Virus record (IMG/VR): IMGVR_UViG_3300045988_142422
DNA from: a virus
Lineage: Duplodnaviria; Heunggongvirae; Uroviricota; Caudoviricetes
Length of the DNA stretch: 64,000 nucleotides
Reading direction: 5' to 3' (one strand)
The notes below the pieces were generated by a model. The model was not told where the DNA came from. It did not search any database and saw only the letters and a program-made list of their open reading frames with translations. Positions within the stretch are counted from its first letter, which is position 1, and the number at the start of each line of letters is the position of its first letter. Both the position numbers and the translations under genes were made by a program. Positions 49,828-49,860 of the stretch are shown here, in pieces.

Positions 49828-49860
49828 AATGATTCCATACCTACTATGTATGGAATCATT
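49828..49860. other. lox/dif-like core site: 13-bp perfect inverted repeats around a 7-bp spacer
   Basis: AATGATTCCATAC-CTACTAT-GTATGGAATCATT, about 100 nt upstream of the tyrosine recombinase gene. Single arms recur at 46558-46575 and 47571-47585. Confidence 0.5.

Follow-up and report, generated by a model that had tools for sequence, protein, structure and literature searches.

The closest functional parallels to the locus described here are Cre/loxP of P1 and the similarly arranged Dre/rox, VCre/VloxP and Vika/vox, in which a two-domain recombinase is encoded beside a single site. In Cre/loxP, perfect 13-bp inverted arms flank a short asymmetric spacer of 8 bp, the carrier is a low-copy plasmid prophage with no obvious accessory sites or factors, and plasmid multimers are converted to monomers. 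All but the last of these traits recur at our locus, where a role in multimer resolution is likely; unlike in Cre/loxP, the spacer is 7 bp, the recombinase gene (int, encoding Int) is apparently under LexA control, and extra conserved single arms flank the site. By sequence, the nearest relatives of Int are the P4-like integrases (PF13356 + PF22022 + PF00589), with which it shares the YDRHDY catalytic motif. Those enzymes have a 7-bp overlap region and act on short, imperfect core arms supplemented by arm-type sites, unlike the long, perfectly symmetric arms found here. A single recombinase with a palindrome-like resolution site is also seen in XerH/difH, whereas the lambda and Tn1549 integrases need arm sites or act on transposon ends. 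The dif-type sites of Xer systems, 11-6(8)-11 in layout, show no apparent resemblance to the palindrome arm, going by the dif/cer consensus. The recombinase fold also occurs in MrpR (YopR) of SPbeta and SroF of phi3T, whose motif of about 15 bp is dispersed over the phage genome (PMC10516654; bioRxiv 10.1101/2025.11.27.690993). Published surveys of phage-plasmids report a persistent tyrosine recombinase in the SSU5 supergroup, to which no site was assigned.

The window, that is, the whole 64,000-nt stretch analysed, was placed by sequence comparison among SSU5/pHCM2/pMT1-type phage-plasmids. The 6 kb around the palindrome are 98% identical to Escherichia phage CMS-2020a and the phage-plasmid Cyrano (pLF82), and match Salmonella phage SSU5 and SSU5-like plasmids of Klebsiella less strongly. 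The locus is the replication module of an SSU5-type element, with helicase, primase, ligase and small membrane ORFs, followed in our inventory by three tRNAs, an AT-rich ORF, glutaredoxin, the recombinase, a helix-turn-helix (HTH) regulator, CobT/CobS-like genes and a DNA polymerase III alpha-like gene. The features on which the argument turns are as follows.

46560-46575, plus strand: half-site a, AATGATTCCATACATC, overlapping the stop of ORF 46349-46564 and the start of a 50-aa membrane ORF (46561-46713)
47572-47587, plus strand: half-site b, in an ORF-free region upstream of the tRNA genes
47779-48242: three tRNA genes
47937-49827, no strand: variable accessory (moron) region, delimited by breakpoints against four close relatives and adjoining the left side of the site; cargo in the window comprises a tRNA-Ser, an AT-rich 302-aa ORF (48421-49329, minus strand) and glutaredoxin (49503-49748)
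49803-49827, plus strand: semi-conserved A-tract flank, consensus CAGAWTTYAAAAAA plus 8-10 variable nt
49828-49860, no strand: predicted core recombination site, AATGATTCCATAC-CTACTAT-GTATGGAATCATT, with left arm 49828-49840, spacer 49841-49847 and right arm 49848-49860
49885-49913, plus strand: predicted int promoter, TTGATC-17-TAATAT, read from the sequence
49915-49930, plus strand: LexA-type box CTGTTTACTTATACAG, directly after the -10 of the predicted promoter
49959-51062, plus strand: tyrosine recombinase of the two-domain type, 367 aa, PF00589, annotated 'integrase'
50565-50575, minus strand: degenerate half-site TGATTCCAAAC, inside int
51057-51443, minus strand: HTH regulator, convergent with int with a 6-nt overlap
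55626-59144: DNA polymerase III alpha-like (dnaE-like) gene
55876-55891, minus strand: half-site c, antisense in the polymerase gene, where it encodes ..CMES..

The palindrome is exactly what an earlier note on this DNA had described, a perfect 13-7-13 inverted repeat about 100 nt before a recombinase gene; the gap to the ATG at 49959 is 98 nt. The explanation that we favour as a whole, at a probability of about 0.65, is that it forms the core site of Int, that site and enzyme together resolve plasmid multimers, and that the single arms are binding sites for Int monomers. Five exact copies of the 13-mer arm are present in the window, at 46560 (+), 47572 (+), 49828 (+), 49848 (-) and 55879 (-). 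By our own estimate, about 0.002 exact copies would be expected per 64 kb on both strands; the mean of 1.83 obtained from shuffled sequence counts matches with up to two mismatches, whereas all five observed arms are exact. Five exact 13-mers in 9.3 kb, all kept in relatives, rule out a chance origin. In the first 100 kb of the 108-kb Cyrano record, all arm copies lie between -3.2 and +6.1 kb of the palindrome, with none outside that interval. Near the site, no repeated motif was found except the core arm.

The 13-7-13 architecture lies upstream of every Int orthologue examined, in about 100 loci whose Int proteins are 44-100% identical. A scan of public collections, with both arms exact and any 7-nt spacer allowed, matched 80 viral contigs and 7 bacterial ones, the latter from Kluyvera, Chimaeribacter, Yersinia pestis and Buttiauxella. 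In every hit whose available DNA extends to int, the palindrome precedes the gene by 44-100 bp, and the encoded Int orthologue is 57-100% identical to that of the window. Because such a scan is conditioned on the arms, orthologues were also gathered by protein alone; all of these, 44-59% identical, are preceded at a distance of 56-173 bp by an inverted repeat whose arms, 10-17 bp long, flank a 7-bp spacer. Their arms are TTGATTCCATAC or GTGATTCCATAC in Klebsiella lineages (Int 56-59%), TGACTCCAGAC in Pantoea, Rahnella, Erwinia, Ewingella, Providencia and Xenorhabdus (Int 44-52%), and mixed or imperfect in Photorhabdus (L100) and two metagenomic contigs (L108, L109).

The replicons of Pantoea, Rahnella, Erwinia and Ewingella, several of them 300-600-kb megaplasmids, share int alone with the phage-plasmids. 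There, the neighbours of int belong to metabolism and transport (pagP, ovoA, MFS genes and genes for TonB receptors). Hence int is the sole companion that the site keeps throughout, which excludes the HTH regulator and other phage proteins as the factor that retains it. The HTH gene is paired with int in every phage-plasmid examined and is not beside int on the megaplasmids; as a family-wide binder of the palindrome it was rejected, since the loci of these four genera keep the site without it.

In the distant clade both arms change together, from TGATTCCATAC to TGACTCCAGAC. Pairs were counted in an alignment of 17 representative sites: complementarity between arm positions was 95%, against 25-38% when the register was slid by 1-3 columns, and none of 500 shuffles reached the observed covariation score. 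Two position pairs, 6/28 (T:A to C:G) and 11/23 (T:A to G:C), switch on both sides, dividing the lineages 8 versus 8, while little or no variation is seen at nine of the 13 arm positions. Arm type tracks the clade of Int, not the taxon of the host. Strongly conserved arms that change symmetrically, and in step with the protein clade, are the hallmark of a site bound by a dimeric protein.

Arms that pair perfectly over 13 bp and show compensatory changes would also be expected of a structure that works without protein, as a terminator or attenuator hairpin or as a cruciform, and inversions of the loop, described below, are typical of hairpins. Mere pairing does not account for the near-invariance of nine arm positions, however, nor for identical arms that exist as unpaired single copies. 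No T-run follows the stem on either strand, the glutaredoxin terminator is a separate hairpin at 49753-49772, Rfam finds nothing at the palindrome, and the element moves with int into unrelated gene contexts. We therefore regard a protein-free structure as extremely improbable. A known RNA family or terminator was likewise discarded, as Rfam returned three tRNAs only and the glutaredoxin terminator lies apart.

Linkage to Int over 44-100% identity, arms that covary with the protein clade and the 13-7-13 geometry bear out the proposal of the earlier note that the palindrome is the core site of the adjacent recombinase. From these comparisons, it is very likely a true lox-like core site, not described before, that belongs to a tyrosine recombinase widespread on plasmids. 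In a literature search, the A-type arm appeared in no paper and the B-type arm solely in unrelated primer lists. Each 13-bp arm of the 33-bp palindrome would bind one Int monomer, with strand exchange across the 7-bp spacer and no need for arm-type sites or an excisionase. In an anchored comparison of 68 unique site regions, Pantoea included, the A-tract flank accompanies the left arm in almost all lineages; judged by its sequence, it may be an accessory or bending element.

Int itself matches PF00589 in Pfam (E=2.9e-10) and, weakly, a central SAM-like domain. Its catalytic residues are R185, K211, R281, R284, H307 and Y316, which conform to the R-K-H/R-R-H/W-Y constellation of the tyrosine recombinase superfamily. 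An alignment of 34 sequences, from the family and outgroups, shows no variation at R185, K211, R284 and Y316 and at least 90% conservation at R281 and H307. Unlike in the P4-like integrases, the box II histidine is an arginine (R281) in the Int family; the outgroups have His. Outside the family, P4-like integrases come closest, at 25-34% identity. These carry an N-terminal arm-DNA-binding domain (PF13356/DUF4102), present in outgroups P0114-P0120, against which the N-terminus of Int aligns as a gap; the domain was found neither in the window's Int by Pfam nor in any member of the clade. No excisionase lies beside int in the gene tables of the loci examined.

An AF2 model of Int (mean pLDDT 85) is matched best by residues 75-356 of lambda Int, covering the core-binding and catalytic domains, and then by Tn1549 Int and Xer, with Foldseek E-values of 1e-7 to 1e-4 and 12-17% sequence identity. 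IntI is a distant fold match. Cre chains rank 38th and lower, at E of about 0.01 and 9-12% identity, and a phmmer search of Int against the PDB returned nothing at E<=1, so that the sequence similarity to Cre is undetectable at that threshold and the fold match weak. Judged by domain content, P4-like kinship and the ranking of folds, Int is a 'simple' two-domain recombinase from an integrase lineage and not a Cre homologue. The module would thus be of the Cre/loxP type in the functional sense, having a 13-7-13 site next to the gene and neither an arm-binding domain nor accessory arm sites, whereas in sequence and close structure Int falls outside the Cre protein family.

Among 5,426 complete E. 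coli genomes, the site was present in 207 and int in 252, always on plasmids and with the site once per record. Neither was found on a chromosome in this survey, which covered E. coli chromosomes, and chromosomal attB sites or integration were accordingly rejected for that species; the P4-like integrases differ in this respect, as they insert at a chromosomal attB, usually a tRNA gene, and so produce attL and attR. In PLSDB, int is carried by 1,081 plasmids, 989 of them non-mobilizable, including the Yersinia pestis plasmids of about 100 kb and many SSU5-like plasmids of Klebsiella, Enterobacter and Salmonella. For Cyrano, the copy number is 5.5 per cell (PMC9928086).

A single site per monomer, the lack of attB, arm-binding domain and excisionase, and low-copy carriers lead us to multimer resolution, which, on balance, is probably the main role of the module. 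The 13-7-13 geometry and the nature of the carrier replicons make dimer resolution, one of the functions suggested by the earlier note, the most plausible job. Int and its site would form a self-contained module, present once per replicon on SSU5/pHCM2/pMT1-type phage-plasmids and on unrelated enterobacterial megaplasmids, that converts multimers to monomers as Cre/loxP does for P1.

The family is common, with about 1,080 PLSDB plasmids and plasmids in 4-5% of complete E. coli genomes. Its carriers range from the ~100-kb plasmids of Y. pestis through phage-plasmids of Salmonella, Klebsiella and Enterobacter to megaplasmids of Pantoea. Everywhere the protein is annotated 'integrase', yet nothing seen points to integration. 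With a defined 33-bp site, this persistent SSU5-supergroup gene acquires a testable function in plasmid maintenance. The module is probably a natural, previously undescribed counterpart of Cre/loxP, accompanied by conserved single arms that would serve as binding sites. The two diverged recombinase/site pairs, with TGATTCCATAC and TGACTCCAGAC arms and a 7-bp spacer, could be orthogonal to Cre/loxP-type tools.

The spacer drifts freely, with 12 variants among the exact-arm sites, many of which conform to TYNNNAG on one strand or the other. Such variation is expected if identity between the two copies in a dimer is all that matters. Exact reverse-complement spacers were found three times, implying at least three flips relative to int: CTACTAT versus ATAGTAG in plasmids L046 and L004, which share cargo and do not differ in the flanks compared; CTATTAA versus TTAATAG within the Yersinia/Buttiauxella group; and the latter pair again in Erwinia versus Rahnella/Ewingella. 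The site is thus free to point either way relative to int, and its orientation flips on short time scales. Template switching at hairpins is known to cause small loop inversions and would be the simplest cause of these flips, although they may also depend on Int.

To the left of the site, the DNA is highly variable. Homology between the window and four close relatives is restored at 49826-49828 for three of them and at 49810 for the other, while the left breakpoints are scattered (~44895, 47855/47937, 48322/48420 and 49728). The cargo in the window includes an AT-rich ORF with a GC content of 0.28-0.31 over 48500-49500, for which, as for Int, PADLOC gave no anti-phage defence annotation. Plasmids with int at least 98% identical have at least six unrelated left flanks or cargos; elsewhere, these comprise Phd/RelE and YafO toxin systems, colicin/cloacin and immunity genes, and the moron CYRAN_43, which in Cyrano is very highly expressed, runs leftward and adjoins the site.

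Such a hot spot for unrelated accessory genes, among plasmids otherwise 94-99% identical, could mark the site as an attP-like or integron-attI-like platform, where plasmid integration or the capture of circular cassettes brought in the left cargo. The kinship with P4-like integrases and an apparent SOS-inducibility resembling that of many integrases and of IntI would suit this explanation. It is at odds with the absence of site and gene from the E. coli chromosomes surveyed, with an Int that lacks the arm-binding domain and has no neighbouring excisionase, and with the structure of the cargo. At the far borders of the cargo in eight loci, neither a full nor a degenerate arm (up to two mismatches in 11) occurs beyond chance, and there is no array of repeated sites. 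These arm-free borders leave no direct trace of Int-mediated cassette insertion, and integron-like capture was rejected on the absence of arm scars; the same eight loci show no attC-type cassette array beside an attI. Furthermore, the loose CAGAWTTYAAAAAA motif, 10-24 bp left of the arm, stays with every cargo type, even in Pantoea, which places the real junction slightly further left and makes the site region about 60 bp long. A capture platform is improbable on this evidence.

Because the flank motif is kept across cargos, the exchange of segments fits better than the insertion of cassettes. We read the pattern best as exchange of whole left-hand segments between related plasmids, with the site or int as one crossover, and/or as a permissive position for accessory genes. 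Over evolution, the site would thus have served as a boundary joining diverged accessory DNA on the left to the conserved int side, and it would explain why toxin-antitoxin, bacteriocin immunity and moron genes pile up at one fixed position.

The region between palindrome and int contains the predicted promoter, with a score of 8/12 and absent from the output of the promoter scanner, and the LexA-type box, the sole occurrence of CTGT-N8-ACAG in the window. Both are conserved where Int is 82-100% identical but not in distant clades, though the site is kept there. In an RNA-seq table for LF82, int of Cyrano rises from a log2 value of 5.6 in LB to 10.3 after 6 h in macrophages, a 26-fold increase. 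The SOS response of LF82 is induced inside macrophages. Expression of int thus seems to be induced by stress or SOS rather than kept at a steady housekeeping level. Of the features associated with multimer resolution, one site per record, confinement to plasmids in E. coli and the 5.5 copies of Cyrano are all observed; SOS-linked expression is atypical for a plain housekeeping resolvase and counts against routine dimer resolution.

A palindrome upstream of its own gene could conceivably act as an autoregulatory operator as well, or solely. In the latter case, a dimer of Int or of another regulator would control int and/or the divergent accessory genes without any recombination. Between the site and the downstream -35 of the predicted int promoter are 24 bp, and in Cyrano the site adjoins the very highly expressed CYRAN_43; pure repressors with a recombinase fold do act on dispersed 15-bp sites (MrpR, SroF), and single arms would suit a regulon. 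Against this, the catalytic residues of Int, including the nucleophile Y316, are conserved over 44-100% identity, whereas MrpR has lost both its catalytic residues and its recombinase function. The distance between site and gene ranges from 44 to 173 bp, and the site is kept in the distant clades where the promoter and LexA box are not conserved. The half-site centres are 20 bp apart, which is recombinase geometry and unlike a typical HTH operator. Autoregulation would in any case be compatible with recombination. An operator-only role is, in our assessment, distinctly improbable.

Multimer resolution leaves the single arms unexplained. The three single copies share a longer, 16-bp consensus, AATGATTCCATACATC. 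The earlier note had placed single arms at 46558-46575 and 47571-47585; both are real, as the 16-mers a and b, whereas its list lacked the exact copy c and the degenerate copy inside int. It had also put the first at the start of a small membrane-protein gene, and the ATG at 46561 does open a hydrophobic 50-aa ORF. Half-site a encodes the M/V-IPYI start of this protein, half-site b lies outside coding sequence in the window and in Nissabacter (L102) overlaps a stop codon, and half-site c is read on the antisense strand of dnaE. A gene start is thus found at only one of the three singles, and the motif is not the conserved 5' end of a duplicated gene, an explanation that was discarded. Promoter elements were rejected too, since no promoter was called at any half-site and the distance to -10-like hexamers is not conserved.

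Among loci with a dnaE N-terminus at least 78% identical, 32 were readable at the positions of half-site c; all 32 keep it intact, while the codons beside it vary. Of the more distant dnaE genes, four were mapped, and these have neither the half-site nor the CMES peptide. The copy inside int is a perfect TGATTCCATAC(ATC) in many lineages with Int at 82-86% and in the Klebsiella lineages L092 and L096 (56-59%). It is the weakest of the sites, as it partly reflects the coding of the invariant W204-N-Q. The ATC that extends the arm is kept in the singles and used in no palindrome spacer. Every locus with single arms has them on the plus strand to the left of the palindrome and on the minus strand to the right, mirroring the polarity of the nearer palindrome arm. 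Taken together, these sequence patterns are the mark of selection at the DNA level. No single arms were found in the TGACTCCAGAC clade, making them a lineage-specific addition.

The earlier note had further suggested that cassettes are exchanged between the single arms. This is not supported: each single stands without a second arm, no spacer is common to them, the 7 nt that follow match neither the palindrome spacer nor, in most lineages, each other, and no arm remnants occur at the far ends of the cargo. Synteny breakpoints in relatives (~44895, 47855/47937, 48322/48420, 49728 and the left edge of the palindrome) do not fall on any single arm. The singles are therefore neither recombination partners nor cassette borders.

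One pair of singles does share its next 7 nt: half-sites a (+) and c (-) of the window are both followed by ATCTCAT, in mutually inverted orientation, as if they were asymmetric sites between which Int inverts or deletes DNA in the manner of the R64 shufflon. The Rci/sfx sites of R64 have a 7-bp spacer and only one conserved arm. The resemblance is superficial, since the single arms share no spacer across lineages and no inversions were observed. The 7 nt after a and c read ATCTCAT/ATCCCTT in L003 and L014 and ATCATTT/ATCCTCC in L030, the strand pattern is constant in every locus with single arms, and if the DNA between a and c were inverted, the polymerase gene would be broken at codon 85. 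Such inversion was rejected for this pair: identity of the 7 nt is limited to the window's lineage, and the window is collinear with each of the four close relatives (L001-L004) to which this region was compared. Shufflon-like use of the arms is barely credible.

In the explanation we favour, the single arms are probably binding sites for Int monomers, candidates put forward on the strength of this analysis. They would be of high affinity, selected in one sub-lineage, and regulatory or architectural rather than recombinational. The binding of MrpR and SroF to their dispersed motifs offers a possible model. Unlike those motifs, the single arms are few (3-4), lie within 6 kb of the core site and are not at predicted promoters; and unlike MrpR, Int retains all of its catalytic residues. 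Int therefore shows neither the catalytic loss nor the promoter motifs of a recombinase-fold repressor.

We also considered, as a tentative and rather unlikely extension, that Int has two jobs, recombining the core site and, once induced by SOS, occupying the 3-4 half-sites as a regulatory or architectural array in the replication module. The half-sites are mirror-polar around the core, and one lies in the coding sequence of the replicative polymerase. Occupied half-sites might act as roadblocks, form DNA loops to the core that restrict recombination, or serve as barriers to forks or transcription facing the resolution site. Int would then be a catalytically active counterpart of the recombinase-fold repressors MrpR and SroF, and the half-sites, if a true regulatory layer, would be of wider interest.

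The phage SSU5 provides a natural comparison. It has lost the segment spanning int, the HTH gene and the palindrome; half-sites a and c, which are coding, are kept, and the non-coding half-site b carries one point mutation. The sequence of this one phage points towards a dependence of the single arms on Int.

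The integrase gene int, which encodes a tyrosine recombinase of 367 aa (49959-51062, plus strand), and its proposed core site, a 33-bp palindrome (49828-49860), lie among further features of the window:

39919-39976, inverted repeat with perfect 16-bp arms, GACCTGCTTCCGTATA ... TATACGGAAGCAGGTC, 26 nt apart
46186-46365 and 46561-46713, two small membrane ORFs of 59 and 50 aa
47001-47778, 780-bp stretch without ORFs, with long inverted repeats, upstream of the tRNAs
48421-49329, minus strand, AT-rich 302-aa ORF, GC 0.28-0.31
49803-49827, A-tract motif CAGAWTTYAAAAAA, loosely conserved, at 10-24 bp to the left of the palindrome's left arm
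49885-49930, predicted int promoter, TTGATC-17-TAATAT, with a LexA-type SOS box

The SOS box, CTGTTTACTTATACAG, occupies 49915-49930, immediately 3′ of the −10 element, and is the single occurrence of CTGT-N8-ACAG in the whole window; it is kept in relatives from Klebsiella, Yersinia and Salmonella. In the close relative Cyrano, int RNA rises about 26-fold within macrophages, according to published LF82 RNA-seq.

Among otherwise matching plasmids, the 7-nt palindrome spacer (49841-49847) occurs in both orientations relative to int, with three independent reverse-complement pairs, all exact (L004:8014-8020 versus L046; L009/L048; L106 versus L094/L107). The flip reflects either small hairpin-loop inversion or a process linked to the recombinase. 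To the left, the A-tract motif is present in nearly all lineages, Pantoea megaplasmids included, irrespective of the variable cargo, and may serve the palindrome site as an accessory or bending element.

The type phage SSU5 of Salmonella (NC_018843, 15836-16001) lacks the whole segment comprising tRNA-Thr/Ser, cargo, glutaredoxin, palindrome, int, HTH regulator and small ORF. Of the window's single-arm half-sites, a (46560-46575) and c (55876-55891) are retained, and b (47572-47587) is altered at one base. Loss of the repressor-like gene may underlie the plaque-forming behaviour of this phage.

The tRNA-Asn/Thr(/Ser) segment (47776-48266) shares 91-95% identity with the tRNA region of phage-plasmids P1, P7 and D6, and the tRNA cluster is therefore common to two phage-plasmid families; outside this segment, the genome is unrelated to all three. 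Within the adjoining ORF-free stretch, CACAACGTTGAGGCC at 47391-47405 pairs with 47498-47512, and a second stem (~47506-47571) runs right up to half-site b. The stretch, which had no match in an Rfam search, is a candidate for a structured RNA or for an origin-like region. The AT-rich ORF had no Pfam or PADLOC match, its sole match being PHROG 35492, of unknown function; since it is found in CMS-2020a SCU-107 but not in Cyrano, it appears to be a moron acquired recently.

The two membrane ORFs look like paralogues because both have a transmembrane segment at the N terminus and the motif (K/R)xYR(I/V)V(E/H) at the C terminus; the start of the 50-aa ORF falls inside half-site a. The arm of the other clade, TGACTCCAGAC, recurs unchanged on a Klebsiella oxytoca plasmid (L092:7310-7320, minus strand), where it lies within a gene for a RelE/ParE toxin, 600 bp to the left of a palindrome with the window's arm type. 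No second arm accompanies this copy, which may have arisen by chance or may record where the cassette came from. Among perfect short-range inverted repeats, that at 39919-39976 is the longest in the window.
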